Shown here in pieces: positions 9,748 through 35,971 of a stretch of DNA of 64,000 nucleotides. Origin of the DNA: Bacteroidota bacterium (lineage in GTDB: Bacteria; Bacteroidota; Bacteroidia; Flavobacteriales; Flavobacteriaceae); NCBI GenBank assembly GCA_051748125.1, contig JBNJHC010000008.1:43975-107974 (forward strand), given 5' to 3'. A program made the translations under genes and the position numbers. Each line of letters begins with the position of its first letter. Positions within the stretch are counted from its first letter, which is position 1. The notes beneath the pieces were generated by a model. That model did not search any database, was not told where the DNA came from, and saw nothing but the letters and a program-made list of their open reading frames with translations.

Positions 9748-10107
9748 TTCTGTTAACTGTTGTTTTCGACTCCGCTCGAACTTAAAACAAGTAAATTGGT
9801 AAAACCCCGTAGACTGAATAACTCGATGGTAATCGAATTGTATCGAAGTCTAAGAGAAATTTGAATCGATAATTTTGAATTGGAAGAGTCAAGGAGTTGA
9901 AGGTTAAAGGGGTTTTTGCTCTATTAAACTCTCAATGTCGATTGAAATTAGCGGAATTCTTTTTTTTGTTGCCCATATGGCGTGAACCCATGTTTTGTTG
10001 AATGAATGCAGTATAGTCTCACGTTTTTTTAGACGAGGATTTAATTCATGAGCTAAAATTCAATAACCTAGCTTTTAGTTAATGACCACAAATGTACTTA
10101 CGAGCAC

Positions 10108-10596
10108 TTATCCATTAATGATCCAGTAGTTGATTTGTTTTTTCTTGCTTTCTTTCATTTTTTTGTAAAAATGTGAAATGATTTTTTCTTTTAAAGGATG
10201 GTTTCGTTCTAGGCAATCCTTTCCTTTGGAATCAATAACTTTTAAACACGCAAAATATTCTTTTCTGGTCTCTGTTCCATCAGCAATAACTGTAAATGTT
10301 TCATTATTGTCAAAAAGTGTAATGTCTTTCCAGATTTTTCTTTTAGTGAATGGCATATACAACGAATTTTTTTGCTCATCCCAAAACCCAAAATCAAGGT
10401 ACATTAATTTCATGGTGTCATATGCAGATTCAATATCATAAAACCTTAATTCATTATGATTAGTAGTATCTGTGGTTGAACTCTTTGTATTTTCAAAAAT
10501 CTCTAAATCTTCATAATTGGTTTTAATCGTAATATCTTTTGAAGAAGAACAAGAAGTTAAATTAAGTACCAACAAAATGATAAAAAGTCTTTTCAT
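10108..10596 (-). CDS. Putative lipoprotein, unknown function
   Basis: Internal Met gives MKRLFIILLVLNLTSCSS, a signal peptide plus lipobox Cys. The listed upstream extension is unlikely. Confidence 0.55.
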   Translation of the reverse strand: MKRLFIILLVLNLTSCSSSKDITIKTNYEDLEIFENTKSSTTDTTNHNELRFYDIESAYDTMKLMYLDFGFWDEQKNSLYMPFTKRKIWKDITLFDNNETFTVIADGTETRKEYFACLKVIDSKGKDCLERNHPLKEKIISHFYKKMKESKKKQINYWIING

Positions 10597-10980
10597 AAAT
10601 ATTATTTTTTTAGTTGCGAATCTTGTAAATGATTTGTAATAAACAAAAAATGCAATCAATTTTTATTGTATGAAATTGATTTTATAAAGATACACAAAAT
10701 TACAATTCAGTCAACTGGATAGAGTTTTGAAGTATAAATTTTGAATTGATAATTTTGAAATGTCTTGTCGCTCTGTAGAACTTCAATTCTATTTGCCTTT
10801 GTTGAAATCACCAATCCATCGCTTTTAATTATTATTTGCGAAAAACCAAATGAAAACTTTTTCTGTTTCAATCGAAAAACTATATTTGTCATTCACAATA
10901 TATTGTTAATCTTGGTTAGGTCGTTTGGAGTGAAAAGAGAAGTAAGCTCCTACTACACCTAATAAAGTAGAATAAAATCG

Positions 10981-11781
10981 ATGAAAAAATCCGCTTTAGC
11001 GTTGTTTATATTGACTTTACTATTCATGTCTTCATGTATAGGTCCTAAGAAATTGATTTACCTTCAGCAAGATGAAGATAGTGAAGCTGCTCAAGATTCG
11101 CTATTAACGCTGCAAGAAGTACAAAAACCTTACCGCGTTCAAGTCAATGATATTTTGAGTATTCGGGTAAAGGCAATCGATCAGGAATTGGTTGGGATGT
11201 TTAACCCGATAGACGATTCTAATGCCGATGCCACTACCGAAGAAAAAGCTTATTTCGACGGTTACCGCATCGATAGGCGAGGGGAAATCCGCATTCCAAC
11301 GATGGGGAAGCTCAAAGTGGTGGGAATGACACTTGAAGAAATAGAAACCCTTATTGAAAAGGAGTTGCTAGAGAGTTATTTCACCGAAAAAGCCAACTTG
11401 TTTGTTACCGTCAAATTGCCGGGTATTCGCTATACCACAATGGGTGAAATTGGTTCGCCTGGCGGACAAGTGGTTTATAAACAGCAAGTAAGCATAATGG
11501 AAGCCTTGGCAAATTCGGGTGATATTTTAATGACAGGCGATCGAAAAAATGTAAAGATATTGCGACAATATCCTGAGGGAAAACGAATTCACCACATCGA
11601 CTTAACGTCTATAGATGCAGTCAATTCGCCTTATTATTACATTCAACCAAACGATTTGATTTTGGTTAATCCGTTGCCACAAAAATCCTACGGAATCGGT
11701 ACCGATGGATTTGGAACATTAGCAACGGTACTCGGATTAGTTTCTACGGTAGCAATATTAATTTGGAGATTTAATAGGTAA
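10981..11781 (+). CDS. wza: Polysaccharide export outer-membrane protein (Wza family)
   Basis: Lipoprotein-type signal (LLFMSSCIG), Poly_export-like PYRVQVNDILSIRV, and an SLBB-like segment. The stop overlaps the wzc start. Confidence 0.85.
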   Translation: MKKSALALFILTLLFMSSCIGPKKLIYLQQDEDSEAAQDSLLTLQEVQKPYRVQVNDILSIRVKAIDQELVGMFNPIDDSNADATTEEKAYFDGYRIDRRGEIRIPTMGKLKVVGMTLEEIETLIEKELLESYFTEKANLFVTVKLPGIRYTTMGEIGSPGGQVVYKQQVSIMEALANSGDILMTGDRKNVKILRQYPEGKRIHHIDLTSIDAVNSPYYYIQPNDLILVNPLPQKSYGIGTDGFGTLATVLGLVSTVAILIWRFNR

Positions 11782-14240
11782 TGCAAGACGAAGAATTTAG
11801 CATAGATGAATCAACTGTCAATTTCGATTTTAAAGGATTTCTCTTTAAAATACTAAGTTATTGGTGGCTGTTTTTAATCAGTATCATTATAGGTTTAGGC
11901 GTTGCTTATTACATTAGTGTCCGAAAATTACCCGTATATCAACTTTCGAGTTTAATTGCGGTTAAAGATAATTCTAATCCTTTATTCACTTCCAATACTA
12001 GCCTAACTTTCAATTGGGGCGGCACTTCCAGTAAAGTCAATTCCACAGTTGTAACCTTACAAACCCGTACACACAACGAAAAGGTCGTCAAGGAATTAGA
12101 GTTTTACATCAATTACTTAAGGCAAGGCGAGTATCAGATTGAAGATGCCTACGGAAAAGTTCCTTTTGAAGTTCAATTAGATTCTTCTGCACTACAATTG
12201 CTTAACCAGCAATTTAAAATTCGGTTTGTGGACGAAAACAGCTTCGAATTAATTTTTGAAACGGAAGAAGCATTTGGCGGAAAGCTTTATAATTATTACA
12301 CCGAAGATGAAGTTCAAACCCATTTTATCGCTCAGGATTTTATTAAGGAATACAAATTTGGCGAAAAAATTGAAACGCCATTTTTCAACGGAATTATTAA
12401 TCGTTCTAATATTCCTGTTCAGCCTGGAAGCGAATATTTCTTTAGTTTTAGTCATTTGAATTCCGTCGTCAGCACCTACCAAAATATAATGGTCAATGCT
12501 GAAAAAGACAAAGGTTCTATTTTAAATTTGACCTTGCGTGGACAGAACAAAAAGCGCATTGTAGATTACCTCAATACCACCGTTGAAGTCTTGAGTCAAG
12601 ATATGTTGGATCGTAAAAATTTATTTGCTACGAAAACCATCAATTTTATCGATTCGATGTTAGTCGATCGTGCGCGTGATTTACGCGAAGTTCAAGATGA
12701 ACTAGACAGCTTTAAAACCGAACGGAATGTATTTGATTTAGATGCCGAAAGCGAGCAATACCGTACACGATTACTAGAACTTGATAAAGAAGAACGCGAA
12801 GTTCAAAAAAGCTTAAATTATTACGAAATATTAGAAGAGTATTTGCGTACCAGAAACGATTATTCAGATGTTCCTGCTCCTTCCGTTTCTGGAATTACCG
12901 AACCGAGTATTTCGAGTGCGGTCAATAAAATTATAGAACTTTCTGAGCAACGAAGCTCGTATCGTTATTCAGCAAAACCAGAAGCGCCTGTTATTTTTGA
13001 TGATATCGACCGTCAAATCGATGCAACCAAATCGGTTTTACTCGAAAATATCGAGTCTTCTCAAAAGTTATTGCAGCGTGAACTCAACAACATAAAAGCT
13101 GATATTTTTGAAATTGAAAACAAAGTCAGAGAACTGCCACAAGATCAGCAAGATTTACTAAAAATCGAGCGTCGCTATGAGCTTTCACAAGAAACCTATA
13201 ACCTGTTTTTATCCAAGAAAAATGAGGCGGGATTAATTCGTGCTGCTAATGTTTCAGATGTTATTGTAATCGATGAAGCCAAAGATGTTGGCAGCGGAAA
13301 AATCGGTCCTAACAATCAATTGAATTACGTTATGGCATTGTTGATTGGCGGTTTTGTGCCGTTGATATTTGTGTTTTTGTTAGTCATGCTCGACAACAAA
13401 GTCAACAACCCTAAAGACTTACTCAAAAACAGCCAAATCCCGATGCTTGGAGTCATTGGCAAAAGTTCTATTAAGGGGAATTTAGCGGTGCTAAAAAAAC
13501 CTAGAGGAGCTGTAGCTGAAAGTTTTCGAGCGATAAGAACCAGTTTGAAATTTACGTTTAAACAAAAAGAAGACAACAGCTCTAAAGTGTTGATGAGTAC
13601 TTCGTCCATTTCTGGGGAAGGAAAAACCTTTACGGCTATCAACTTGGCTTCGGTGTTTTCGTTAAGCGGAAAGAAAACAGTTTTAGTGGGATTAGATTTG
13701 CGTAAACCTAAGATTTTTGATGATTTTGGAATCAATAACAAACTCGGTGTTGTTAATTATTTAATCGGTCATAATAGCCTAGATGAAGTTACCCAGTTTT
13801 CGGGTTATGATAATTTAGACCTTATTACTTCTGGTCCTGTACCACCTAATCCATCCGAATTATTAATGGATGATCGAATGGATGAATTGATGACTTCGTT
13901 AAAAGAAAAATACGATTATATCATTTTAGATACGCCGCCAATAGGATTGGTTTCAGACGCTTTAAACCTCGTAAAACACGTTGATGCCACATTGTATTTG
14001 GTTAGACAGAACTACACCAAAAAAGCCATGCTAAATGTGATTAATGATAAGTATCATTCTGGCGAAATAAAAAACATAAGTTTCTTGTTGAATTACTTCG
14101 AGCAAAAAGCGAAATATGGCTATGGTTACGGATATGGCTACGGCTATGGTTACGGCTACGGCTATGGAAAATATGGCGATGCTTACCTCAAACGCGATAA
14201 AAAACGCAGTTGGATCAGGCGAATTCTTACAGGGAAGTGA
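11781..14240 (+). CDS. wzc: Chain-length determinant / tyrosine autokinase (Wzc/GumC-like)
   Basis: 819 aa. Two TM segments flank a long coiled periplasmic region. C-terminal P-loop ATPase (STSSISGEGKTFTA, ILDTPP) and a Tyr-rich tail (YG repeat). Confidence 0.85.
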   Translation: MQDEEFSIDESTVNFDFKGFLFKILSYWWLFLISIIIGLGVAYYISVRKLPVYQLSSLIAVKDNSNPLFTSNTSLTFNWGGTSSKVNSTVVTLQTRTHNEKVVKELEFYINYLRQGEYQIEDAYGKVPFEVQLDSSALQLLNQQFKIRFVDENSFELIFETEEAFGGKLYNYYTEDEVQTHFIAQDFIKEYKFGEKIETPFFNGIINRSNIPVQPGSEYFFSFSHLNSVVSTYQNIMVNAEKDKGSILNLTLRGQNKKRIVDYLNTTVEVLSQDMLDRKNLFATKTINFIDSMLVDRARDLREVQDELDSFKTERNVFDLDAESEQYRTRLLELDKEEREVQKSLNYYEILEEYLRTRNDYSDVPAPSVSGITEPSISSAVNKIIELSEQRSSYRYSAKPEAPVIFDDIDRQIDATKSVLLENIESSQKLLQRELNNIKADIFEIENKVRELPQDQQDLLKIERRYELSQETYNLFLSKKNEAGLIRAANVSDVIVIDEAKDVGSGKIGPNNQLNYVMALLIGGFVPLIFVFLLVMLDNKVNNPKDLLKNSQIPMLGVIGKSSIKGNLAVLKKPRGAVAESFRAIRTSLKFTFKQKEDNSSKVLMSTSSISGEGKTFTAINLASVFSLSGKKTVLVGLDLRKPKIFDDFGINNKLGVVNYLIGHNSLDEVTQFSGYDNLDLITSGPVPPNPSELLMDDRMDELMTSLKEKYDYIILDTPPIGLVSDALNLVKHVDATLYLVRQNYTKKAMLNVINDKYHSGEIKNISFLLNYFEQKAKYGYGYGYGYGYGYGYGYGKYGDAYLKRDKKRSWIRRILTGK

Positions 14241-14244
14241 TTTT

Positions 14245-14560
14245 CAATTTTGAAATGCGAAATAATAATTTTGAATTTTGAAATGTGAATTGTAAACGGT
14301 TCTCAACACTTCAACTTCACTCAGTGCCGGCAATCTCGAACTTGAAACAGGAGAGAAACAAAAAAAGGAAAGCCGAACTTGAAGCATATAAAATTATAGC
14401 TAAAAGCAATACATTGATGTTTAGCTTCGAGCCTCTCAATTCTTCGAGATAAACTCAGTCGAGAAGTGGCTCATTTCAGACTCTTTAACTTGACAGGTTG
14501 GGAGAATCAAAGCGATTTGAAATAATAATTTTGAATTGATAATTTTGAAATTTGAACTAC
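14245..14560. repeat. Family A composite repeat, copy 1
   Basis: Aligns nearly base-for-base with 15402-15735. Made of a TGAATTT word array, the module ggttctcaacacttcaacttcactcagtgccggcaatctcgaacttgaaaca, and the core ttagcttcgagcctctcaattcttcgagataaactcagtcgagaagtg at 14421-14468. Confidence 0.9.
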
Positions 14561-14628
14561 ACTTAAAAAAATATTTTTAAAGTTCTTTTTTTGAGAACTA
14601 ATTGTATATTTGTATCATAATTTGGCTC

Positions 14629-14925
14629 ATGAAACGAATTATTGCGAAAAGTACGCTGAGAGAATTTTGGGAAAAACACGCTGATTCCGAACAGTATTTG
14701 AAAACTTGGTATGATACTGCTAAAAGTGCTAACTGGTTTTCTCCAAATGATGTAAAGCAGACTTATGTTTCAGTAAGTATTCTAAAAAATGGTCGAGTTG
14801 TTTTCAATATAAAAGGAAACTCTTATCGGCTTGTAGTTAAATTTAACTATGAAAAACAATGGGCGTTTATTCGATTTATTGGAACTCATCCTGAATATGA
14901 TAAAATAAACGCTGACACGATTTAA
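14629..14925 (+). CDS. higB: Type II toxin HigB-family mRNA interferase
   Basis: MKRIIAKSTLREFWEKH..NSYRLVVKFNYEKQWAFIRFIGTHPEYDKI matches the HigB_toxin pattern. ATG at 14629 preferred over the listed TTG. Confidence 0.8.
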   Translation: MKRIIAKSTLREFWEKHADSEQYLKTWYDTAKSANWFSPNDVKQTYVSVSILKNGRVVFNIKGNSYRLVVKFNYEKQWAFIRFIGTHPEYDKINADTI

Positions 14926-14937
14926 ACAAAATTGATT

Positions 14938-15312
14938 ATGGATTTAAGACCTATTAAAAACGAGAAAGACTACCGAAACGCACTTGAACGTTTGGAAGTG
15001 ATTTTTGATGCTCCAATTGATACAAAAGAAGGTGATGAAGCTGAAATTTTATCATTGATGATCGAAAATTATGAAAATGAACACTATCCAATCGAGTCAC
15101 CAGATCCAATCGAAGCGATAAAAATACGTATGGAAGAATTGAATTTGCGTCAAAAGGACTTAGTAGGGGTAATTGGCGGAAAGAGCCGAGTATCTGAAAT
15201 CTTAAATCGTAAAAAGAAGTTGACTGTTGAAATGATTAGAGAATTAGAACGCTTACTCCAAATTTCAGCTTCAGTTTTAGTCAATAACTATCAACTTGTT
15301 AAAAAACAATAA
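14938..15312 (+). CDS. higA: HigA-family antitoxin (HTH)
   Basis: Lies 12 bp downstream of higB. C-terminal HTH-like segment (LRQKDLVGVIGGKSRVSEILNRKKKLTVEMIRELERLL), typical of HigA partners. Confidence 0.75.
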   Translation: MDLRPIKNEKDYRNALERLEVIFDAPIDTKEGDEAEILSLMIENYENEHYPIESPDPIEAIKIRMEELNLRQKDLVGVIGGKSRVSEILNRKKKLTVEMIRELERLLQISASVLVNNYQLVKKQ

Positions 15313-15401
15313 GGGGTAACAATTCATAATTGTAATTAGTAAATTGAAAAAACCTCGGAGGCTGAGTGACTCGATGGTAATCGAGTTGTACCGAAGTCAA
15401 A

Positions 15402-15735
15402 GAATTTTGAATTGCGAAATAATAATTTTGAATTTTGAAATGTGAATTGTAAACGGTTCTCGACACTTTGACTTCGCTCAATGCTGGCAAGCTCGAACTT
15501 GAAACAAAGGAGGGACTCGAACTTGAAACAGGAGAGAAACAAAAAAAAAGGAAAGCCGAACTTGAAACATATAAAATTATAGCTAAAAGCAATACATTGA
15601 TGTTTAGCTTCGAGCCTCTCAATTCTTCGAGATAAACTCAGTCGAGAAGTGGCTCATTTCAAACTCTTTAACTTGACAGGTTGGGAGAATCAAAGCGATT
15701 TGAAATAATAATTTTGAAATCTGAACTGTCAAATT
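15402..15735. repeat. Family A composite repeat, copy 2
   Basis: Direct repeat of 14245-14560 with one extra ctcgaacttgaaac sub-unit. Core at 15604-15651. Confidence 0.9.
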
Positions 15736-15910
15736 TGAATTTTGAACTATCAAATGTAAAATACAAAGCCCTAAAAAATCCCTTTGTATAAAAAATTGTA
15801 GAACTAAAGAATATCTGTATTTTTGGGAAAAATTAATCAATAGCAAGTAAATTAATCAATGTTATGAAAAACAATATGATACCTTGCTTTATAACATCTT
15901 TTGAAATCTT

Positions 15911-17191
15911 ATGGAATATAAAATAGCGATCATCGGTTTGGGGTATGTGGGCTTGCCATTGGCAGTTGCATTTGCTGAAAAATACGAAGTTATTGGTTTT
16001 GATATCAATCAAAGTCGGGTAGATGAATTGGCGAAAGGCCACGATCATACGCTGGAAGTAGCGGATGAAGATCTGCAAAAAGTGCTTCAGCAGAAAGGTC
16101 AGTTTGGTTTAAAAGTTACTGCTAATCCTGATGATTTGGTTGCGGCAAATTTTTATGTCGTTACGGTGCCAACACCAACGGATAAAAATCGCCAGCCTGT
16201 TTTAACGCCATTGATTAAAGCTAGTGAAACCATCGGGAAACAGCTTCAAAAGGATGATATTGTCGTGTATGAATCTACGGTGTATCCTGGCGTAACGGAA
16301 GATGTTTGCGTGCCGGTGTTAGAAGAATTTTCAGGAATGACTTTTAATCAGGATTTTTATGTGGGCTATTCCCCTGAACGCATTAACCCAGGTGATAAAA
16401 AACACACGGTTACCAAAATTTTGAAAGTAACTTCTGGGTCAACTCCAGAAATTGCTGAGCGAGTTGATGAAGTCTATAAAAGTGTTATCACTGCTGGAAC
16501 GCATTTGGCTTCTTCCATAAAGGTAGCTGAGGCGGCTAAAGTGATTGAAAACTCACAACGGGATATCAATATCGCTTTTGTAAATGAACTCTCTAAAATA
16601 TTTCGATTATTAGCTATCGATACCGATGATGTACTGGAAGCGGCTGCTACGAAATGGAATTTTATCAAATTCACTCCCGGATTGGTTGGAGGACATTGCA
16701 TTGGAGTAGATCCGTATTATTTAGCCCAAAAAGCACAAGAAGTCGGTTATAACCCAGAAATCATTCTTTCAGGGAGAAGAATGAACGACGGAATGGGACG
16801 TTATGTAGCTAACGAAGTCATTAAATTGATGCTAAACAACGAGGCTAAAGTCAAAAATGGTAAAGCCTTGGTGTTGGGAATCACTTTCAAAGAAAATTGT
16901 CCCGACACACGGAATACGAAAGCAATTGATGTCATCGACGAGCTAAAAGCTTACAACATGGAAGTTGATGTTTGCGATCCGTGGGCAAATCCAGCTGAGG
17001 TAAAAGAACTTTTTGATATCGATTTAATCAGTAACTGCAAAGATTTAACCGAAACCTATGAAGCAGTTGTATTGGCCGTTTCTCACGAAGAATTTTTAGA
17101 ACTGGATTATTCCCGTTTAACAAACGATAAAGGAGTGGTTTTTGATGTAAAATCAATTCTACCAAAACACATCGTAGACGGAAGACTGTAG
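15911..17191 (+). CDS. Nucleotide-sugar 6-dehydrogenase (UDP-GlcNAc/ManNAc dehydrogenase-like, TviB/WbpO type)
   Basis: N-terminal IAIIGLGYVGLPLAVAF Rossmann motif, catalytic GGHCIGVDPYY, 426 aa. Confidence 0.9.
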   Translation: MEYKIAIIGLGYVGLPLAVAFAEKYEVIGFDINQSRVDELAKGHDHTLEVADEDLQKVLQQKGQFGLKVTANPDDLVAANFYVVTVPTPTDKNRQPVLTPLIKASETIGKQLQKDDIVVYESTVYPGVTEDVCVPVLEEFSGMTFNQDFYVGYSPERINPGDKKHTVTKILKVTSGSTPEIAERVDEVYKSVITAGTHLASSIKVAEAAKVIENSQRDINIAFVNELSKIFRLLAIDTDDVLEAAATKWNFIKFTPGLVGGHCIGVDPYYLAQKAQEVGYNPEIILSGRRMNDGMGRYVANEVIKLMLNNEAKVKNGKALVLGITFKENCPDTRNTKAIDVIDELKAYNMEVDVCDPWANPAEVKELFDIDLISNCKDLTETYEAVVLAVSHEEFLELDYSRLTNDKGVVFDVKSILPKHIVDGRL

Positions 17192-17221
17192 TATTCCATT
17201 CAAATTTTATATATTGTACTA

Positions 17222-17258
17222 TTAGCGGTTGGTTTGAAGCATTCAAGTCAACCGCTAA
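17222..17258 (+). terminator. Hairpin downstream of the dehydrogenase gene
   Basis: ttagcggttg..caaccgctaa, a 9-10 bp perfect stem. The T tract after it is weak. Confidence 0.35.
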
Positions 17259-17428
17259 ACTGTTTATAGACGTGTTTTGTAAGCGTTAAAATAATTAAGA
17301 AAATGCCCTTGTAATTTTTTCCATTTTCTGTATTAACTCCTATATTTGAGCTTTCAATAATGAATCATTTTCGCACAGTAAGCCAATCAAAAATGGGACT
17401 TGCTGCGGCGAAGCCGTGGAGAGTTTTG

Positions 17429-17640
17429 GTCGCTGACGCTCCCGTTGTGGGGTTCGCCTCGCTTCGCTTGCTCACTGTTATGGGGTTGCTATCGCAACTG
17501 TTTAGGCGATAGATTTGATTTCAAAATACGATTTAGGTACTAAGCATAACAAATTACAACAGCGAGCTTTGCGAGCACCACAACAGCAGATAAGCGCAGC
17601 GATATCTGCCCCACAACAGAAACCGAAGGTTTCCTACAAC
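17429..17640. repeat. Family X GC-rich palindromic element, copy 1 (short form)
   Basis: GTTGTGGGG/GTTATGGGG words on the left and CCACAACAG/CCCCACAACAG on the right, around a conserved AT-rich centre (gcgatagatttgatttcaaaatacgatttaggtac). Confidence 0.85.
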
Positions 17641-17706
17641 ACTTTTTGAAGTTAAGCCAAATTGTATAAAACAGATTAAAGTTGTATTTTTACTAAAAAT
17701 CAAGTT

Positions 17707-17934
17707 ATGAAAAGGGATGTGCTTATTAGTCAAACAATAAAAAAAATCAAGCAATTACCTGATTACAGACTAAAAGAAGTCAATAGTTATGTTGATTTTT
17801 TATTGAGTAAAATTGATGATCAGATTCTGTTAGAGAATATTAAAGATTTGTCAATGCAATCAGATTCATTTGATTTTTTAAATGATGATGAAGAATTATA
17901 TGAGGTTTCTGATGTTAAGGAACATTACCAATGA
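17707..17934 (+). CDS. Putative antitoxin of the adjacent PemK/MazF toxin
   Basis: 75-aa ORF overlapping the toxin start by 4 nt. Small acidic C-terminus. Assignment rests on position only. Confidence 0.6.
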   Translation: MKRDVLISQTIKKIKQLPDYRLKEVNSYVDFLLSKIDDQILLENIKDLSMQSDSFDFLNDDEELYEVSDVKEHYQ

Positions 17935-18260
17935 GAAAAGGAGACATTGTTTTAATTCCATTTCCTTTTTCTGATTTGACAGGAACAAAAAAACGACCAG
18001 CTGTAATTTTACTTAATGCTGCTGATGATGTGGTGTTATGTTTTATCACTTCACAGTTAAAATGGAAATCTGAATATGATTTAACACTCATGCCATCTGA
18101 AAAAAATGGTATTAAAAAAGAATCTATCATTCGCATAACGAAGTTGGTAACTTTAAGCAAAGATCTTGTTATTGGTAAACTAGGAGAGCTTGACCAAGAA
18201 GAAACTCTTCTTTTAAATAAAAATATAATAAGAGCTTTTAGGCTAAATAACAGCGAGTAA
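17931..18260 (+). CDS. mazF: PemK/MazF-family type II toxin
   Basis: MRKGDIVLIPFPFSDLTGTKKRPAVIL is the hallmark MazF/PemK N-terminus. 109 aa. Confidence 0.85.
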   Translation: MRKGDIVLIPFPFSDLTGTKKRPAVILLNAADDVVLCFITSQLKWKSEYDLTLMPSEKNGIKKESIIRITKLVTLSKDLVIGKLGELDQEETLLLNKNIIRAFRLNNSE

Positions 18261-18552
18261 TGTTGTTAGGTCGCTGGTGCTCTCGTTGTGGGGTTCGCCT
18301 CGCTTCGCTTGCTCACTGTTGTGGGGTCGCTGGCGCTCCTGTTGTGTTGCGCCTTTCGGCGCGTTGTGGGTTGCTATCGCAACTGTTTAGGCGATAGATT
18401 TGATTTCAAAATACGGATTTTAGGTACAGAGCATAACAAATAACAACAGCGAGCTTTGCGAGCACCATAACAGGCAACTTGTTGCCGCCACAACAGCAGA
18501 TAAGCGCAGCGATATCTGCCCCACAACAGAAACCGAAGGTTTCCCACAACAC
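18261..18552. repeat. Family X GC-rich palindromic element, copy 2 (long form)
   Basis: About five GTTGTGG-type words with 13-23 nt spacers, the same AT-rich centre, then about five CCACAAC-type words. Spacers are mini-hairpins (gcgcc-tttc-ggcgc, ggcaac-tt-gttgcc, gcagata..tatctgc, gaaacc-gaa-ggtttc). Confidence 0.9.
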
Positions 18553-18653
18553 TTTTTGAAGTTAAGCCAAATTACATAAAACAGATTAAAGTTATATTTC
18601 TACTAAAAATCAAATTATGAAAAGGGATGCTTCAAGAATTTATGGACTAATCA

Positions 18654-20021
18654 ATGAATAAAAAAACATTAGAGCATATCATCAATACTGGTGAAACAAC
18701 AACTGTTGAGTTTAAAACAAACTTTAACAATGAAGTTGTTGAAACATTAGTAGCATTTGCAAATGCGCAAGGCGGTAAGGTGTTGATTGGGATATCAAAT
18801 GACAAAAATGTTGTTGGGGTTTCATTACAAGAAGAATCTGTTCAAAACTGGATAAATGAGATTAAACAAAAAACAGCGCCAAGCCTTATACCTGATGCAG
18901 ATGTTTTGGAAATAGCGTTTAAAAAAGTATTGGTTTTTACCATAAAAGAATACCCTATTAAACCTGTTTCATTTAGAGGGAGATATTACAAACGTATGGC
19001 AAACGCTAATCATTTATTAAGTGTAGAAGAAGTTGTTAATATGCACTTGCAAACTATCAATTCTAGCTGGGATTACCACACCAATAATTACTCTAAAATA
19101 GATGATATTTCTTTTGAAAAAGTACAATCAGCCATCGAAGTTATAAACAAAAATGGAACAATCATAAATGAAGATCCTATTAATTTTTTGTTTAAGAAAG
19201 ATCTTATAAAAAATGAAAAACTCACCAATGCAGCTTTTTTACTTTTTACAAAAAAGGATACAGTTATCACTACTGTAGAACTGGGACGTTTTCAAACCTC
19301 CATCATTATAAAAGATAACGACCGCTCACAAACAGACTTGATTGCTCAAGTCAATCAAATTATCGGTTTTGTAGAGAAACATATCAATAAAGCTATTATT
19401 ATTACGGGCAAAGCACAGCATACCCAAGAGTGGCAGTACCCTATGGAAGCCATAAGAGAAATAGTTTTGAATATGGTAGTGCACAGGGATTATCGAGATA
19501 CAGCAGATTCTATTGTCAAAATTTTTGACGACTATATAGAGTTTTTTAACCCTGGTAGGTTGCCCGAAAACATAAGCGAAAAAGATTTAATAGAAAACAC
19601 TTATACATCGACGCCTCGAAATAAGTTAATTGCCGATATATTTAGAAGTATGGGGCTTATAGAAAAATATGGTTCTGGTATAAGGCGTATTATTAATTAT
19701 TGTACTGAAGCGGGATTACCAAAGCCTACTTTTCAAAACCAAGGGAATGGTTTTTTAGTAAGGGTATATGGAAAAAAGGCAGAAAATGTCGTAGAAAATG
19801 TCGTAGAAAATGTCGCAGAAAATGTCGCAGAAAATGAAAAAAAGATATTAAGGCTTATAGATAATAATTCTAAATATTCTGCTAAGCAAATGTCAAAACT
19901 ACTTGGTCTTACACAAAGAACTGTGCAAAGATACCTCAAGGAACTGCAAACTAAAAATATAATAGAAAGAATCGGTCCCGCTAAAGGTGGTTATTGGCAT
20001 ATTAACAAAAATAATGACTAA
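18654..20021 (+). CDS. AlbA_2 (Schlafen-like) DNA-binding plus HATPase_c_4-type ATP-binding protein with a C-terminal wHTH
   Basis: N-terminus GETTTVEFKTNFNNEVVETLVAFANAQGGKVLIG is the AlbA_2/divergent-AAA signature. The C-terminal ..LGLTQRTVQRYLKELQ is HTH-like. Confidence 0.75.
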   Translation: MNKKTLEHIINTGETTTVEFKTNFNNEVVETLVAFANAQGGKVLIGISNDKNVVGVSLQEESVQNWINEIKQKTAPSLIPDADVLEIAFKKVLVFTIKEYPIKPVSFRGRYYKRMANANHLLSVEEVVNMHLQTINSSWDYHTNNYSKIDDISFEKVQSAIEVINKNGTIINEDPINFLFKKDLIKNEKLTNAAFLLFTKKDTVITTVELGRFQTSIIIKDNDRSQTDLIAQVNQIIGFVEKHINKAIIITGKAQHTQEWQYPMEAIREIVLNMVVHRDYRDTADSIVKIFDDYIEFFNPGRLPENISEKDLIENTYTSTPRNKLIADIFRSMGLIEKYGSGIRRIINYCTEAGLPKPTFQNQGNGFLVRVYGKKAENVVENVVENVAENVAENEKKILRLIDNNSKYSAKQMSKLLGLTQRTVQRYLKELQTKNIIERIGPAKGGYWHINKNND

Positions 20022-20050
20022 CCGTATAAACAAATTAAAACACTTAGAAA

Positions 20051-20332
20051 GTTGTGATGTTCGCCTCGCTTCGCTTGCTCACTGTTGTGGGGTCGCTGAC
20101 GCTCCTGTTGTGTTGCGCCTTTCGGCGCGTTGTGGGGTTGCTGTCGCAACTGTTTAGGCGATAGATTTGAATTCAAAATACGATTTTAGGTACAGAGCAT
20201 AACAAATAACAACAGCGAGCTTTGCGAGCACCACAACAGCAGATAAGCGTAGCGATATCTGCCCCACAACAGAAACCAAAGGTTTCCCCACAACAGGGAG
20301 GGAGCGCAAGCAACCCGACCACCACAACAATA
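20051..20332. repeat. Family X GC-rich palindromic element, copy 3
   Basis: Same word/spacer architecture and centre as copies 1-2. Ends 14 bp before the wzm ATG. Confidence 0.9.
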
Positions 20333-20345
20333 AGATAACACACAA

Positions 20346-21209: not shown

Positions 21210-21210
21210 C

Positions 21211-21690
21211 GTAATGGAGGAATGGTGTAATGGAAGAATGGAGGAATAGAGGAATAGTGTAATGGAGGAATGGTATAATAGAGGAATAGTGTAATGGGGG
21301 AATAGTGTAATGGAAGAATGGTGTAATGGAAAAATGGTATAATAGAGGAATGGTGTAATGGGAGAATGGTGTAATAGAGGAATAGTGTAATGGGAGAATG
21401 GTGTAATGGAAGAATAGTGTAATGGAAGAATAGTGTAATGGAGGAATGGTATAATAGAGGAATAGTGTAATGGGAGAATGGTGTAATGGAAGAATAGTGT
21501 AATGGGAGAATAGTGTAATGGGAGAATAGTGTAATGGAAAAATGGTGTAATAGAGGAATGGTGTAATGGGAGAATAGTGTAATGGAGGAATGGTATAATA
21601 GAGGAATGGTGTAATGGGAGAATGGTGTAAAGGAAGAATAGAGTAGTAGTGTAATGGAATAATGGAGTAATTGAAGAATGGTAGTCAAGT
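21211..21690. repeat. Degenerate 8-bp (16-bp super-unit) tandem array, GAATGGTG/TAATGGAA type
   Basis: About 60 consecutive 8-bp units, pattern NAATRGNR, read directly. The reverse complement (CCATTACA/CCATTCTT) is related to the right-hand array. Confidence 0.95.
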
Positions 21691-21772
21691 AGTAGTTTAA
21701 TAGAAAGTTAGTGTATTAAATGTGTAGAAAAAACAAAAATAAACTTAATTGTATTAAGTATAATTTTATCTT

Positions 21773-21938
21773 ACCACTATACCACTATACCACTATACCA
21801 CTATACCACTATACCACTATACCACTATACCACTATACCACTATACCACTATACCACTATACCACTATACCACTACACCACTACACCACTATACCACTAT
21901 ACCACTACACCACTACACCACTACACCACTACACCACT
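21773..21938. repeat. 8-bp tandem array CCACTATA / CCACTACA (about 21 units)
   Basis: Near-perfect period-8 repeat. Ends 18 bp before the wzt ATG. Confidence 0.95.
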
Positions 21939-21956
21939 AATAACTGAAATAAACAA

Positions 21957-23228
21957 ATGAACAACATCATACTAAAAGCCGAAAACATCTCCAAACAATA
22001 CCGACTTGGCTTGGTAGGGACGGGGACGTTGAGTCACGATTTAAATCGTTGGTGGCATCAAATACGGGGGAAAGAAGACCCTTATTTAAAAATTGGTGCG
22101 GAGAACGACCGCAGTAAAAAAGCGGAAACCGATTACGTCTGGGCATTGCGGGATATTAACTTTGATGTCTATGATGGCGATGTACTGGGTATTATTGGAA
22201 AAAATGGCGCGGGTAAATCTACCTTGCTCAAAATTTTATCGCGGGTAACTACGCCGACTACAGGAAGCATTAAAACCAAAGGACGTATTGCTTCTTTACT
22301 AGAAGTAGGTACGGGCTTTCATCCTGAATTAACGGGTCGAGAAAATATTTACCTCAATGGCGCTATTTTGGGGATGACCAAAAGTGAAATTAAAGCCAAG
22401 GAAGAAGAAATAATAGATTTCTCAGGTTGTGCCATGTATATTGATACGCCCGTAAAACGCTATTCCTCAGGAATGCGGGTGCGATTAGCTTTTGCCGTTG
22501 CTGCCCATTTAGAACCCGATATTTTGGTGGTAGATGAAGTCCTAGCCGTAGGTGATGCCGAATTCCAAAAGAAAGCCATTGGCAAAATGAAAGATATTTC
22601 AGGTAACGATGGCAGAACGGTTTTGTTTGTGAGCCATAACATGGCAGCGGTGAAAAGCTTGTGTACACGAGGGATTGTGTTGGAGAATGGAACTTCTGTT
22701 TTTGAAGGGACAGCAGAGGAGTGTGTAAGTTATTATTTGAAAGATGGAAAATCTGAAGCTAATAATGAAAGAGTATTTAAAAATGTAGAAAAGAATGATG
22801 TTTTTAAGCTAAATTCAATTTCGGTTTCAAATGCAGGGAGAAGTTTTGGAGAGCCGATTGTAGAAGACGAGGAAGTTCATTTAAAAACTTCTGTTTACAT
22901 AGAAAAAGAACCAGAGCGCTATCATATTACTTATCATTTATATAACGAACTAGGAGAAGCTATGTTTAGTCTGTCTAACAGAAGGGCAGATGTAAATCTA
23001 GTTAATGGTGTAAATCATCTTGTCTGTAAATTTCCAAAAGGGTTTTTACAGCCAGGTAATTTTTCATTAAAATTTCTACTTGTGAAAGATAGAAAAAAAG
23101 CTATTTACATAGAAGACTCTATTGTTAGTTTTACAGTAGTAAATGCCGGTAGAGAACTTGGGGTTTATATGGGGAAAGAACCTGGTTTTATTATACCTAA
23201 TTTAGAATGGAAACAAGACAATAAATGA
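21957..23228 (+). CDS. wzt: Polysaccharide ABC exporter ATP-binding protein with a C-terminal extension
   Basis: Walker A GKNGAGKST, signature YSSGMRVRLAFA, Walker B ILVVDE. An extra C-terminal domain of about 170 aa, as in Wzt proteins with a glycan-terminus-binding module. Confidence 0.9.
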   Translation: MNNIILKAENISKQYRLGLVGTGTLSHDLNRWWHQIRGKEDPYLKIGAENDRSKKAETDYVWALRDINFDVYDGDVLGIIGKNGAGKSTLLKILSRVTTPTTGSIKTKGRIASLLEVGTGFHPELTGRENIYLNGAILGMTKSEIKAKEEEIIDFSGCAMYIDTPVKRYSSGMRVRLAFAVAAHLEPDILVVDEVLAVGDAEFQKKAIGKMKDISGNDGRTVLFVSHNMAAVKSLCTRGIVLENGTSVFEGTAEECVSYYLKDGKSEANNERVFKNVEKNDVFKLNSISVSNAGRSFGEPIVEDEEVHLKTSVYIEKEPERYHITYHLYNELGEAMFSLSNRRADVNLVNGVNHLVCKFPKGFLQPGNFSLKFLLVKDRKKAIYIEDSIVSFTVVNAGRELGVYMGKEPGFIIPNLEWKQDNK

Positions 23229-28403: not shown

Positions 28404-29537
28404 CTACTCACGCAACCTATAAAAATGCTCAACAATCGCCATCCATTCTTTGCGTTCCTTTGTTGCAGCACGTTGGTAGGTGTCCGTGGGATAGTCTAAC
28501 TGTAGCGAGTATTTATTCTTGCTTTTGTTGAACCATTGTCTAAATGCCACATCTTTTATCAAAATTGTTTCATCCTTTTCAGACATTTTACGGTATAAAA
28601 AAGAAAGCATTTTATGACTTGTAATTTGTTTTGCACAGGCATCAAAAAACAGAAAATCCTTAGCGTCTTTAAAGATATGCTTGGGATAATCAATTTCAGC
28701 AGTTTGCTTGGATTGTTTAGAAGTATTTTCAGCCGCTTGATGAGGTTGGGAGTTATCATTCAGTTGGAGGTAGGAATCAAATTCAGTACGGACTTCATCA
28801 AAAAGATGGTCTTCTTCCAAATCAAGGAAGTGTATAATTTCATTGATAAGATGTTCCATCCATCTTTTACAAACTTGGTGAAATTGAGCGGTTTCAGTTT
28901 CACTTAAAAGCGGTGGATGCAGTAAATGCTTTAAGTCGGTTCGATGTAGGCTAATTAAATCAGCAGGAATAGCATTTGAATTAAACTTAAAATTAGTTAA
29001 GGCATTAATAATAAGAGCAGTCAAAATGGAATTAGCTATTTTATCAAATAATTCTTTAACTTCAAGGAATGATACAATTTCTAGATTAAGTTCTTTTGAG
29101 GTCAAATATTCTTGAAAGGATATATCAGTATTGAGGTATGGAGGGATAGCTTTAATCAATTTCTCCAGTTTTTCAATGCAAGGTTTAAAAGATGAAATTT
29201 CTTTCAGATAGTCGTTAGTAAGGGCTGGTTTTTGCGTATTCATCAAAAAGTTATACTCAATTTTCCAATAATAGGAGAGTAAATATTTTTTTTGATTATT
29301 TGAAGTAATAGAGCAGCGATGAAGAGTATGTTCATTATATAAATCAAGCAACTCATTTTGGTCAATCTTTTTTTTGTAGTTGTTGTCATTAACAACACCT
29401 CCGTCAACATAAAATAGGTAAGCAATCATGTTTTTTACAAACTGTTGCGGAGCGGTAAGTTTACCAGCATTATAATCTTGAATTCTATAGGTAATGTCTT
29501 TTTCAAATGGATTGGTCGAGTATAAATCAAAATTCAT
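28404..29537 (-). CDS. Hypothetical protein (377 aa)
   Basis: Long uninterrupted ORF with no recognisable domain. Preceded on its own strand by an AT-rich stretch and six direct repeats. Confidence 0.55.
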   Translation of the reverse strand: MNFDLYSTNPFEKDITYRIQDYNAGKLTAPQQFVKNMIAYLFYVDGGVVNDNNYKKKIDQNELLDLYNEHTLHRCSITSNNQKKYLLSYYWKIEYNFLMNTQKPALTNDYLKEISSFKPCIEKLEKLIKAIPPYLNTDISFQEYLTSKELNLEIVSFLEVKELFDKIANSILTALIINALTNFKFNSNAIPADLISLHRTDLKHLLHPPLLSETETAQFHQVCKRWMEHLINEIIHFLDLEEDHLFDEVRTEFDSYLQLNDNSQPHQAAENTSKQSKQTAEIDYPKHIFKDAKDFLFFDACAKQITSHKMLSFLYRKMSEKDETILIKDVAFRQWFNKSKNKYSLQLDYPTDTYQRAATKERKEWMAIVEHFYRLRE

Positions 29538-29626
29538 TAATTATATTTTTATAAATTAGCGTGATAATTTACTATAAAAATATATTTTAACAAAATAAAA
29601 AACTAAAAATAACAGTATAGTTAATA

Positions 29627-29756
29627 AAAAAGTAAGCGAGCTTTAAAAAAAAGCAGCCGAGGTTTAGTAGAAAAGTAACCAAGGTTTTTGAAAAAAGTAG
29701 CCGAGCTTTTGCAGAAAAGCAAGCCAACTTTTTAGTAGAAGCAGCCGAGCTTTTTT
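29627..29756. repeat. Six tandem 20-24 bp iteron-like repeats (AAAAGYARCCRAGSTTTT)
   Basis: aaaagtaagcgagcttt / aaaagcagccgaggttt / aaaagtaaccaaggttttt / aaaagtagccgagctttt / aaaagcaagccaacttttt / aagcagccgagctttttt, read directly. Confidence 0.85.
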
Positions 29757-29795
29757 ACAGCAGGAGAGAAATATAAACTAGAAGCGCCTGTTAGG

Positions 29796-29830
29796 CACAA
29801 AAAAAGCCGATGCATCACACACCGGCTTGT
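29796..29830 (-). terminator. Rho-independent-type terminator of the HU-like gene
   Basis: Minus strand: AAGCCG-13 nt loop-CGGCTT followed by TTTTTGTG. Confidence 0.5.
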
Positions 29831-29850
29831 ACCTAAAAACTTAACAAATT

Positions 29851-30267
29851 TTAGTCACTGTCAGGTCTTAAAATTTTAAAGTCTAGGGTATTCAGCGCCT
29901 TCTTAACATGTTTAGAAGGTCTATAATTGAGCCTAATACGTTTCAAGTTGCTGATATCAACATCTTCAGGTGTCTCACTCCCCGAAGAATTTACAGCCAC
30001 TTGAAAGCTACCAAGTTTACCCAATTCTACCACGCGACCTTGTCGCAGTTCGTCTAACATATTATGGACAAAGGCATGAAGAACCGCTAAACAGTCAGGT
30101 TCTCGCACCGTAGATTGATTGGATATGAGGTAAGCTAAATGCTCTAAATCTGAATTGCCATTTTTAATGGCTTGTAAGTAAAACTTTTCAGGCGCTTCTA
30201 TATTATTTGGGTTTATTTTCGCCTGAACTTTTAGTAAATTAACCCTATTATTAAAATTAGTAATCAT
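29851..30267 (-). CDS. Bacteroidetes-type HU-family DNA-binding protein
   Basis: 138 aa. ..LEHLAYLISNQSTVREPDCLAVLHAFVHNMLDELRQGRVVELGKLGSFQV.. matches the long HU-like proteins common in Bacteroidota. Confidence 0.7.
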   Translation of the reverse strand: MITNFNNRVNLLKVQAKINPNNIEAPEKFYLQAIKNGNSDLEHLAYLISNQSTVREPDCLAVLHAFVHNMLDELRQGRVVELGKLGSFQVAVNSSGSETPEDVDISNLKRIRLNYRPSKHVKKALNTLDFKILRPDSD

Positions 30268-30559
30268 AAAATTTAATTTTTAAAAATTTATTATTAATAG
30301 TTCTAAAATCCCGGTGAGTAGAAGTGGCTACCACCTCATAATTAAGTAGAACTAAGCTTAATTATTTCTCAATTTTTGCACTAAAACTTTATTTCATTCG
30401 CATTATTTTTTGTTTTAACTGCAAATATATGAGCTATATGTCTTAAACCCTGTACAAGAAAATAGAGTTTACGGGCAAAATAAATGAATTTACTCAGTTA
30501 TTTTGCAAGTCATTGGTAGTTAGTCTGTTGTCTGTTAATTTTTAATTTTTAATTTTGAA

Positions 30560-31290
30560 ATAATAATTTTGAATTGTGAAATTTGAATTGTGAATTGGAA
30601 AAGTCAAAAAATCAGTGACCAACATTCTCAGGGTAAACAATACTGTTTAACTTCGAGCCTCTCAATTCTTCGAGATAAACTCAGTCGAGAAGTGTCAGTT
30701 GTTCTCGACTCCGCTCGAACTTGAAACAAAGATGTAACTCGAACTTCAAACAAAAGTAGAAGCTCGAACCTGCAACAAAGAATAGTTTAAGTAAAATCGG
30801 TACTTGACCCTTCGATATTGCTCAGTTTAACTTCTATACTGTTTAGCTTCGAGCCTCTCAATTCTTCGAGATAAACTCAGTCGAGAAGTGTCAGTTGTTC
30901 TCGACTCCGCTCGAACTTGAAACAAAGATGTAACTCGAACTTGAAACAAGAGCGAAACAAAAAAAAAGAAATCCGAACTTGAAGCATATAAAATTATAGC
31001 TAAAAGCAACACAATACTGTTTAGCTTCGAGCCTCTCAATTCTTCGAGATAAACTCAGTCGAGAAGTGTCAGTTGTTCTCGACTCCGCTCGAACTTGAAA
31101 CAATTGACGTTTCGTTTATCTTCGAGCTAGTTTATACTGAGTCCTCAATCCTTCGGGATAAACTCCGTCGAGAAGTAGCTGGTTCTTGAAACTTCAATTC
31201 AATATTTCAAGCCCTTGAACTAAATTAAGGTGAAAAAGTTGGGAGAGTTGAAATGGTAATTTTGAATTTTGAAATGTATTCGGAGTAGAA
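30560..31290. repeat. Cluster of family A modules (three full cores plus one degenerate)
   Basis: Core ttagcttcgagcctctcaattcttcgagataaactcagtcgagaagtg at 30647-30694 (one mismatch, ttaac for ttagc), 30843-30890 and 31021-31068. A diverged copy lies at about 31114-31178. Confidence 0.9.
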
Positions 31291-31329
31291 TAAATTTTTT
31301 CGTAAATTTGAATTTAAAGAAAATTAATA

Positions 31330-31548
31330 ATGGATATTCAAACAACAAAACTTGAACTCTTAAAAACTATTATGGATAATGAAAACGCTGAATTTATCCA
31401 AAGAGTTGCTGATTTTGTTAAAAAGGAAAAAACTGACTTTTGGGACGAATTAAGCCTATCTGAACAAAAAGAAATTAAACAAGGAATAAGCGAATTGAAT
31501 GAAGGAAAAAGAGTATCGTATGAATCCTTTTTGAATAAAATTTCTTGA
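31330..31548 (+). CDS. Putative antitoxin of the ParE/RelE-like toxin
   Basis: 72 aa, overlaps the toxin start by 4 nt. Same family as 33251-33487 (shared ..SEQKEIKQGISELNEGKRVSYESF.. pattern). Confidence 0.6.
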   Translation: MDIQTTKLELLKTIMDNENAEFIQRVADFVKKEKTDFWDELSLSEQKEIKQGISELNEGKRVSYESFLNKIS

Positions 31549-31856
31549 TGAAAGTATTTTTATCTGAACTTGCCGAATCAAAACTTATTAAATTATCTGA
31601 GTACTTGTTAGAAAACTGGAACCTAAAAACTCGTGATAAGTTTATTTCAAAGTTGACTGATAAAATAAAACAAATATCTATTCAACCAAATAGTTGCCCA
31701 CAATCAACTGAATTTAATGGGTTTTATAAATGTGTAGTAACTAAACAAACTACTTTTTATTACAGAATATTAAATGAAGAAGATGAGATAGAGATTATCA
31801 CAATTTTTGACACTAGACAAAATCCTAACGAATTAAAAAAAGACATTGAATTTTGA
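31545..31856 (+). CDS. RelE/ParE-family type II toxin
   Basis: 103 aa with the family-typical C-terminal IEIITIFDTRQNP. Confidence 0.8.
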   Translation: MMKVFLSELAESKLIKLSEYLLENWNLKTRDKFISKLTDKIKQISIQPNSCPQSTEFNGFYKCVVTKQTTFYYRILNEEDEIEIITIFDTRQNPNELKKDIEF

Positions 31857-32087
31857 AATAGCAAATATGAAATCTGAAATATGAATTTTGAATTTTGAAA
31901 TGTAAAATGTAAACGGTTCTCGAAACTTCAACTTCGCTCAGAATAGACTTCTTCACTGTTTAGCTTCGAGCCTCTCAATTCTTCGAGATAAACTCAGTCG
32001 AGAAGTGTCAGTTGTTCTCGACTTCGCTCAAACTTGAAACAAAGAAAAGCTTGAGTTGAAACATTTTTTTTTGAAAGAGCAGTTTAA

Positions 32088-32528: not shown

Positions 32529-32541
32529 TTACATTTGTAGT

Positions 32542-32688
32542 ATGAATCCAAAAGACCTAAATAAGAAAAAAACACCGATTGTAAAAATCGATAAAGGACT
32601 CGAAAAGTATCGAGGTAAGGTTCTTTTTCCCAAAAAACTCAAGAAAGCTAACGAAATTCTTGACAGAGTTGGACTGCCTAAGGCTTAA
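32542..32688 (+). CDS. Small ORF (48 aa) coupled to the preceding gene
   Basis: Not in the ORF track because it is under 60 aa. ATG lies 13 bp after the upstream stop. Translates to MNPKDLNKKKTPIVKIDKGLEKYRGKVLFPKKLKKANEILDRVGLPKA. Confidence 0.4.
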   Translation: MNPKDLNKKKTPIVKIDKGLEKYRGKVLFPKKLKKANEILDRVGLPKA

Positions 32689-32740
32689 TAAGCACAAGTC
32701 CCTAATATCACCTAAATCTTTTTAGTACGTTCTCTTTCTG

Positions 32741-33205: not shown

Positions 33206-33250
33206 AATAAAAATCATTATTTTTGATAAACGGCAATAAATTAGATTGAA

Positions 33251-35934: not shown

Positions 35935-35971
35935 ATACATAGTACTTAGGTTTAATTAATATAACATTTTT

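Follow-up and report, generated by a model that had tools for sequence, protein, structure and literature searches.

Toxin-antitoxin and defence-type modules between repeat-built spacers of a flavobacterial glycan-export operon: an architecture that works like a cassette array but fails the defining tests of an integron

How does an operon for surface-polysaccharide export come to hold toxin-antitoxin (TA) and defence-type genes between its own genes? The question is raised by a glycan locus of a Flavobacteriaceae bacterium (contig JBNJHC010000008.1, positions 43,975 to 107,974; this whole 64-kb stretch is called the window below), where 6.1 kb separate wzc from wzm. The interval, island 1, carries a higBA pair, a nucleotide-sugar dehydrogenase, a mazEF-like pair and an AlbA_2 gene, with a long structured repeat of family A or family X at every junction. 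A preliminary description had likened it to the cassette array of a chromosomal integron and suggested a capture platform with a site and enzyme of its own. Our analysis indicates that the architecture works like a cassette array but fails the defining tests of an integron, of the repetitive extragenic palindromic (REP)/RAYT system and of miniature inverted-repeat transposable elements (MITEs). We give even chances to the explanation that selfish modules landed in resident, recombination-prone repeat spacers, which were then duplicated locally.

The open reading frames (ORFs) and Pfam searches bore out the outline of the locus as first described: wzc ends at 14240, wzm starts at 20346, the genes in between are those named above, and all of these units lie co-oriented on the + strand. 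One repeat copy was found at each of the five junctions, two of A and three of X, at coordinates within a few nt of those given before. The features of the interval and its borders are as follows.

10981-11781, + strand: wza (Pfam Poly_export)
11781-14240, + strand: wzc (Pfam Wzz/GNVR/AAA_31)
14246-14560, + strand: repeat A1, family A
14563-15321, + strand: higBA module, HigB_toxin and HTH_3 antitoxin
14629-14925, + strand: higB, ATG at 14629 (HigB_toxin, E 1e-32)
14932-15312, + strand: higA, HTH_3 antitoxin
15403-15739, + strand: repeat A2, family A
15911-17191, + strand: TviB-like nucleotide-sugar dehydrogenase (Pfam UDPG_MGDP)
17428-17641, + strand: repeat X1, family X foldback
17642-18260, + strand: mazEF-like module, comprising an upstream region (17642-17706), antitoxin and toxin
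17707-17934, + strand: DUF2281-like antitoxin ORF (weak match, below the Pfam cut-off)
17931-18260, + strand: PemK/MazF toxin (PemK_toxin, E 7e-14)
18269-18551, + strand: repeat X2, family X foldback
18552-18629, + strand: duplicated copy of the mazE upstream region and of the first 13 nt of mazE
18635-20048, + strand: AlbA_2/HATPase_c_4/wHTH module (Pfam), ORF at 18654-20021
20051-20332, + strand: repeat X3, family X, abutting the wzm start codon
20346-21209, + strand: wzm, ABC-2 permease (Pfam)
21210-21956, 747 nt: wzm-wzt spacer, X-type foldback design with a different sequence
21957-23228, + strand: wzt (Pfam)

Comparison with related loci separated the backbone of this locus from its insertions. 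Synteny of wza and wzc extends to 12 loci of the Psychroflexus clade and to L067, a closer metagenomic relative. A dehydrogenase with 78-81% amino acid identity follows wzc after about 150 nt in 11 of these 12 loci, and in L067 it likewise stands directly after wza-wzc. The dehydrogenase is therefore an ancestral backbone gene and no cassette, so that the earlier count of four units does not hold; higBA, with one A copy per side, was inserted between wzc and this gene. Beyond wza-wzc-dehydrogenase, nothing of the window is common to the 12 Psychroflexus-clade loci. In particular, none of the 12 has wzm or wzt within 10 kb of wzc, whose usual partners they had been taken to be; Wza/Wzc and Wzm/Wzt belong to different export routes. 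The order wzc-dehydrogenase-epimerase-X-wzm was found in the closest relative, L067, only. In L067, which has the sister contigs L061, L074, L078 and L079, the genes run wza, wzc, dehydrogenase, epimerase, X-like element, wzm (85% amino acid identity to that of the window), X-like element, a 23S_rRNA_IVP four-helix-bundle gene, X-like element and wzt, and both mazEF and the AlbA_2 gene are absent from the locus. The interval is thus modular, with units that relatives have or lack, as had been supposed; the predicted breakpoints at or inside A or X hold for the accessory units and not for the dehydrogenase, which is invariant. No relatives at least 90% identical to ugd, wzm or MazF were found, and when the island was compared with plasmids and phages by blastn, all of the matches listed fell within the dehydrogenase, those in plasmids being annotated tviB.

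The same relative shows that repeats of the X type reside in the locus and vary there by whole sub-units. X3 occupies a position syntenic with the X-like element upstream of wzm in L067, where X-like elements bracket the core genes wzm and wzt although none of mazEF/AlbA_2 is present. Their arms are tandem arrays of a 57-nt unit, and the elements reach from stop codon to start codon. An indel of exactly 114 nt (2 x 57) in one X-like arm separates five samples of this population that are 99.2-99.9% identical. In another locus, L051, an X-like element lies between two glycan genes, inverted relative to transcription.

In the window, family X combines left-arm units ending in CTGTTGTGGGG, an AT-rich centre and right-arm units ending in the reverse complement, CCCCACAACAG. 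The sub-repeats measure 25-57 nt, and many right-arm units contain small local hairpins. X1, X2 and X3 share segments at 95-97% identity and differ by whole sub-units, X1 being without two left-arm units that are present in X2 and X3; their predicted folds gave z-scores of -3.2, -5.6 and -5.7, respectively. A diagnostic X pattern matched three times in the window (none expected), and X occurs there solely in island 1. An X 21-mer had no match in the genome contig collection, and the X pattern had two matches in viral contigs. Scanning metagenomes with a generic X pattern returned 88 loci; blastn matches to X were confined to seven of them, which all belong to the Ga03079xx series, and L087, one of the others, proved on inspection to be an unrelated 24-nt satellite. 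The wzm-wzt spacer folds back like X with an unrelated sequence, of the form (GGAATRGTGTAATGGR)n, AT-rich centre, (TACCACTA)n. It comprises about 470 nt of the G-rich 16-mer array GGAATRGTGTAATGGR, then the AT-rich centre and about 22 copies of TACCACTA, which end 10 nt before the wzt ATG, and its GC skew reaches +0.97.

Three kinds of part make up the mosaic of family A: heptamer runs (TGAATTT / TGAATTG), a 'GTAAACGGTTCTC...CTCGAACTTGAAACA' module and a hairpin core 'CCTCTCAA...TTGGGAGA'. The mosaic has GAAATAATAATTTTGAA as its border at either side. A1 and A2 are direct copies, 92-94% identical, with a single 26-nt indel that is an internal duplication in A2; the RNA fold of A1 has a z-score of -3.1. 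A 27-mer of the A core matched 11 times in the window (none expected), always on the + strand, and had no match in viral contigs. A modules are found in three regions of the window, at 14-16 kb, at 30-36 kb and at 60.4 kb (60371-60433), and A-related motifs flank GIY-YIG genes in two related loci, L106 and L107. The middle region is a second island, organised in the same way:

30268-35793, + strand: island 2, A-family mosaics separating two ParE-type TA pairs, a DUF6934 gene and a YhcG nuclease (matching PADLOC candidate PDC-S02)

Island 2 contains a 98%-identical pair of 247 nt and a 99%-identical tandem pair of 209 nt, the latter with no gene between its copies; its copies are at most 82% identical to A1/A2. 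Rfam searches gave only a tRNA over the window at the gathering threshold and nothing over 14.0-20.6 kb at E <= 1, and A and X are therefore not described RNA families. A coding role for A or X was rejected, as indels between the copies break every small ORF.

How the copies are related to one another hints at how they multiplied. Each repeat copy has its own neighbour as nearest relative. The homology of X1 and X2 (17578-17719 versus 18488-18629, 96%) continues for about 90 nt past the repeat, through the region upstream of mazE and 13 nt into its ORF, which has left a dead mazE start upstream of the AlbA_2 gene. At its other end, the AlbA_2 module takes the place of the first sub-unit of X3. 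The homology in unique flanks, the sub-unit replacement, the similarity between neighbours and the tandem pair without a gene together argue for local duplication with unequal recombination or slippage, and not for independent site-specific events.

Two of the inserted modules, higBA and AlbA_2, are discrete, sharp-ended units that recur in unrelated contexts. The higBA module begins 2 nt past A1, carries a promoter-like TATATTTG at 14606-14613 and ends in an R''-like box, AAGGGGTAACA. Its DNA (14563-15321) recurs with the same ends in L111-L120 (86% nucleotide identity) and L121 (85%); these 11 other loci represent at least five different neighbourhoods, in which the neighbours include a HaeIII-type restriction-modification (R-M) system, a Gp49/HTH pair, UPF0158 and DUF5677. 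The AlbA_2 module (18635-20048) turns up in at least three other contexts. With the same ends it is present in L106 (86% nucleotide identity), after a full DegT aminotransferase gene and before the remnant of a different DegT allele, and in L108 (88%), where its neighbours are a GIY-YIG gene on one side and a 23S_rRNA_IVP gene on the other. L107 has a truncated homolog (84% identical), likewise preceded by a DegT gene, as well as three AlbA_2 paralogs placed between wzm and wzt. None of the higBA and AlbA_2 copies in other genomes is bounded by A or by an X3-type element. For the mazEF-like pair no close relative was found, the closest homolog of MazF being 64% identical and from another order. 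The AlbA_2 protein showed a weak pAgo-associated similarity. The DegT remnant of L106 (within 9840-11610) is 91 aa long with 43% amino acid identity to the DegT of the window, a mosaic junction of the kind that recombinational replacement typically leaves in such loci.

Are A and X then the attC sites of an integron? Within the clade, higBA is indeed an attC-bearing cassette. Varied upstream elements in the relatives all end in '...ACG|TTACCCTTTA', the ORFs end in a complementary box, AAAGGGTAAC, followed by an imperfect palindrome of about 115 nt, and the sequences diverge again right after '...GAGAACCG|TT'. The G|TT start and the R'' box are complementary in the pairs GTTACCCTTT / AAAGGGTAAC and GTTCTACGCA / TGCGTAGAAC. 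Twelve such sites of relatives align with invariant AACA and CGTT boxes and with compensatory changes in 10 of 14 stem pairs, and from them we built a covariance model, CM R1, with which the window was searched with filters off. Two sites were recovered, at the far end of the window and 40 kb away from island 1:

62397-62539, - strand: attC-type site (CM R1 96.4 bits, E 6e-17)
61696-61830, - strand: attC-type site (CM R1 34 bits, E 1e-4)

They flank a 190-aa cassette ORF; the start of this cassette, G|TTGGCAAC, and its R'' box, GTTGCCAAC, match each other. In islands 1 and 2 the model found nothing above 10 bits (best E in island 1, 4.6), and attC half-site hidden Markov models found nothing in either island, including beside higBA, mazEF and albA. 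The polarity of X, with GTT first and AAC last on both strands, is the opposite of that of attC. A and X are not attC. The higBA of the window is without the first ~10 nt of the cassette and without attC past the R'' box, and its junctions are therefore not integrase junctions. The AlbA_2 copies in L106-L108 had no attC match, while attC matches occur about 9 kb downstream of wzc in two other clade genomes. The earlier remark that nothing resembles attC thus applies to the interval but not to the array at 62397-62539 and 61696-61830, nor to higBA in the relatives; likewise the integron analogy is closer than first supposed as regards the origin of higBA and the genuine array, and fails for A and X. 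A search for a recombinase or RAYT, which the preliminary description had recommended, gave no integrase, transposase or RAYT domain in any window ORF of at least 100 aa (Pfam). The contig, 112,363 nt in length, extends past the window, and an intI at some distance is therefore possible.

The minus-strand cassette array (about 60.4-64 kb) to which the two sites belong holds, besides the 190-aa ORF, a 434-aa ORF matching PADLOC candidate PDC-S56, an apparently frameshifted ORF that looks Fic-like by eye and has no domain-search support, and a 184-aa ORF that looks membrane-embedded by eye and has no Pfam match. The loci L111-L121 come from metagenomes Ga03079xx and ERZ273163xx and from P. sediminis FNCW01000002. 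Arrays of the Psychroflexus clade contain TA, R-M and unknown genes in an order that is shuffled between samples; their attC sites are about 140-205 nt long, and the P. sediminis array contains IS110-family transposases.

From these observations we infer a recombination mechanism and a landing-pad role for the spacers. In a conserved backbone of wza, wzc, the TviB-like dehydrogenase, wzm and wzt, unusually long spacers of self-complementary tandem sub-repeats would have been in place, A and X being lineage-specific spacer repeats resident in the locus and not the recombination sites of the modules. As such spacers are dispensable, hairpin-forming and homologous to one another, they would tolerate and attract insertions. 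Three selfish or defence-type modules (higBA, the mazEF-like pair and AlbA_2/HATPase/wHTH) may have landed in them, higBA probably drawn from the attC-bearing cassette pool of the clade and its cassette ends since lost. Unequal homologous recombination or replication slippage would then have duplicated the spacers locally, so that every insert came to be framed by spacer copies (A-higBA-A; X-mazEF-X-albA-X), and the common orientation would be as selected in a 50-kb single-strand operon.

Several observations sit uneasily with this scenario. The 11 A cores all point the same way as the genes. In the window, no spacer with A or X is without an accessory gene on at least one side, and spacers between core genes are mostly short and repeat-free. 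Module ends and repeat ends coincide within a few nt, which is tidier than random illegitimate insertion, and the X boxes C-GTTGTGG / CCACAAC-A resemble the R' and R'' boxes of the clade's attC sites. In addition, small GIY-YIG nuclease genes (88-105 aa) are nested in X-like or A-like repeats of related glycan loci, so that an enzyme partner encoded outside the 64 kb is possible. We put our confidence in the landing-pad explanation no higher than even because the bias toward accessory genes and the tidy module ends would also fit a capture site or an attraction to attC remnants. The nested GIY-YIG genes lie at L107 1-6800, L108 1-2757 and L106 17700-18450, flanked by direct repeat copies; no GIY-YIG gene was found in the window.

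A rival reading, in line with the preliminary description, has A and X as recombination sites of a dedicated, undescribed cassette-capture system parallel to the classical integron. A repeat at all five junctions, co-oriented units, presence/absence breakpoints at or inside repeats between relatives, a recurring order of repeat, small gene and repeat in related loci with GIY-YIG, 23S_rRNA_IVP and AlbA_2 genes, and the likeness of the X boxes to attC R boxes are all consistent with such a system. We nevertheless hold it to be very unlikely, since wzm and wzt, which are core genes, have X-like repeats around them in a relative where the insertions are absent, the dehydrogenase unit is ancestral backbone, the modules elsewhere are not bounded by A or X, one X-like copy (L051) is inverted, the flanking copies bear the signature of local duplication, and no candidate enzyme is encoded in the 64 kb. 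It is a long shot that a second, undescribed gene-capture system coexists with the classical integron and has X, and perhaps A, for its functional substrates. Two forms of it are conceivable: the integron integrase might use the R-box-like arrays of reversed polarity (C-GTTGTGG ... CCACAAC-A), or the hairpins might be targeted by the small GIY-YIG nucleases nested in X-like and A-like repeats. A different route would leave A and X out of the capture altogether. The integron integrase may have inserted the modules outside att sites, as attG insertions or isolated cassettes whose attC then decayed, A and X being unrelated RNA or DNA structures of the operon, such as processing, stabilising or insulating hairpins. 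The higBA cassette of the relatives with its G|TT crossover and R'/R'' complementarity, the true array in the window, the attC matches downstream of wzc in two clade genomes and the documented insertion by IntI at genomic GWT sites (Loot et al.) speak for it, as do spacers that X and A fill from stop codon to start codon in a co-directional operon. It predicts, however, an intact attC and a TT start, and the higBA of the window has neither; the albA copies in L106-L108 are without an attC match, and no intI lies in the window. We judge this route improbable.

Somewhat better placed, and still unlikely, is the possibility that the mobile units are A and X, as non-autonomous foldback or MITE-like elements which transposed into permissive intergenic DNA that earlier insertions had made. 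They would be passengers of the modular layout and not its cause, perhaps with a preference for attC hairpin remnants. Elements that target attC are known, namely the IS1111-attC group and group IIC-attC introns. Mobility would fit the spread of A modules over three window regions and around the GIY-YIG gene of L106, the long inverted arms of X with z-scores down to about -5.7, and the fact that a TAAC-type box closes each of the three accessory modules in island 1, with a repeat within 10-80 nt of it. A TAAC beside a TAA stop is weak evidence, though, and the ends of X1-X3 and A1-A2 show neither target-site duplications nor defined terminal inverted repeats. Moreover, transposition of X alone could not produce the X1/X2 homology into unique flanks, X is confined to one locus of the window and syntenic in the relative, and the window encodes no transposase.

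Set beside known systems, island 1 resembles integron arrays and clusters of attC sites lacking an integrase (CALINs) in its compact co-oriented units, including type II TA systems, in structured imperfect palindromes right after stop codons, in variable unit content and in a higBA that belongs to the clade's attC-cassette pool. It differs from them in that A and X are 210-335-nt composites of tandem sub-repeats that fail a clade-specific attC model, that the box polarity of X is reversed, that X-like repeats bracket core genes in a relative, that there is no intI in the window and that the module ends are not G|TT. Like the REP sequences, bacterial interspersed mosaic elements (BIMEs) and paired REP hairpins (REPINs) associated with RAYT in Proteobacteria, X consists of short palindromic units clustered in opposed orientations within operon spacers and varying in copy number. 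Unlike them, its units have no GTAG-type head, no RAYT (Y1 transposase) is encoded in the window, X is known only from the glycan locus and its syntenic counterpart, and the phylum is Bacteroidota. REP and BIME clusters act as hot spots of recombination and insertion and as mRNA-stabilising hairpins. With foldback elements and MITEs X shares long inverted arms of tandem sub-repeats, an AT-rich centre and strong single-strand folding, but it has no autonomous partner, and its copies are local and syntenic with no dispersed insertion evident. The minimal mobile elements of Neisseria and core-flanked defence hot spots likewise place accessory or defence genes between conserved flanking genes, and swap them by homologous recombination, with no dedicated recombinase involved; island 1 differs in that repeat spacers of a biosynthetic operon form the flanks and that a spacer copy is duplicated with each insertion. 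A higBA of integron family outside an att site in a chromosomal operon recalls IntI insertion at attG and single attC sites lacking an integrase (SALINs; Loot et al.), but a SALIN keeps the attC and TT start that the window higBA is without. Closest to island 1 come BIME-like or foldback spacers that serve as hot spots of recombination, and core-flanked defence-gene hot spots. A diversity-generating retroelement was rejected, as 23S_rRNA_IVP/Avd-like genes are present but no reverse transcriptase, and so was a CRISPR-like array, there being no spacers and no cas genes.

As to the remaining sequence, the composition of the window is that of a genome of about 35% GC, and the relatives of its Wzc put the source close to Psychroflexus within the Flavobacteriaceae. 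Both higBA and the mazEF-like pair consist of adjacent small genes of known Pfam families, the criterion used for type II TA systems. A scan for sigma-70 promoters, which is ill-suited to Bacteroidota promoters, gave 39 sites versus 28.8 ± 5.3 in shuffled sequence, a modest excess, and the same scan gave no excess of terminator-like sites over the shuffled expectation. Short coding repeats were seen in two genes. In wzc, a 12-nt unit repeated in tandem at the 3' end (14115-14162) encodes a tyrosine-rich (YGYG) tail, as expected of a bacterial tyrosine kinase (BY-kinase), and in the AlbA_2 ORF (19781-19840) about 4.5 copies of the 12-nt repeat AGAAAATGTCGT encode an (ENVV/ENVA)n linker before the wHTH domain; the AlbA_2 paralogs of L107 have other 12-nt repeats at the equivalent place.

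Other parts of the window show further irregularities. At the left edge of island 2 the single-strand glycan locus is interrupted by two genes on the - strand (28404-30267), encoding a 377-aa protein without a Pfam match and an HU-HIG DNA-binding protein. Beyond island 2, 98 nt of the 5' end of a GT2 glycosyltransferase gene are duplicated at 98% identity (35839-35936 versus 36802-36899); the duplicate sits upstream of a sulfotransferase gene and leaves a 46-aa GT2 fragment ORF, another insertion with a flanking direct duplication, here of coding sequence. A 23S_rRNA_IVP four-helix-bundle gene (45212-45556) stands between heptamer arrays of GACAGTA / GACAGAA types, partly palindromic, at 45089-45717. 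A remnant of this unit, 77% identical and without an intact ORF, lies at 53427-53648 (within 53424-53854). In L106 and L067 genes of this family are flanked by quite different tandem repeats.

The locus suggests that a surface-polysaccharide operon can collect TA and defence-type genes by way of repeat-built spacers and without a visible recombinase, which bears on the linkage of phage-receptor loci with defence genes. It also carries a warning for annotation, as TA modules amid conserved structured repeats can be mistaken for an integron. Within this one window, mimic and true array were cleanly told apart by an attC model specific to the clade. The attC-type arrays of the Psychroflexus clade, with their covarying stems, G|TT crossovers and shuffled order, are a side result that may matter as much, since integrons were reported to be nearly absent from Bacteroidetes (IntegronFinder 2.0) and arrays in Flavobacteriaceae are therefore noteworthy. 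If X or A were enzymatic substrates, this would be a new capture platform, and with a second capture system of this kind the polysaccharide operons of these flavobacteria would be equipped with landing pads dedicated to TA and defence genes.

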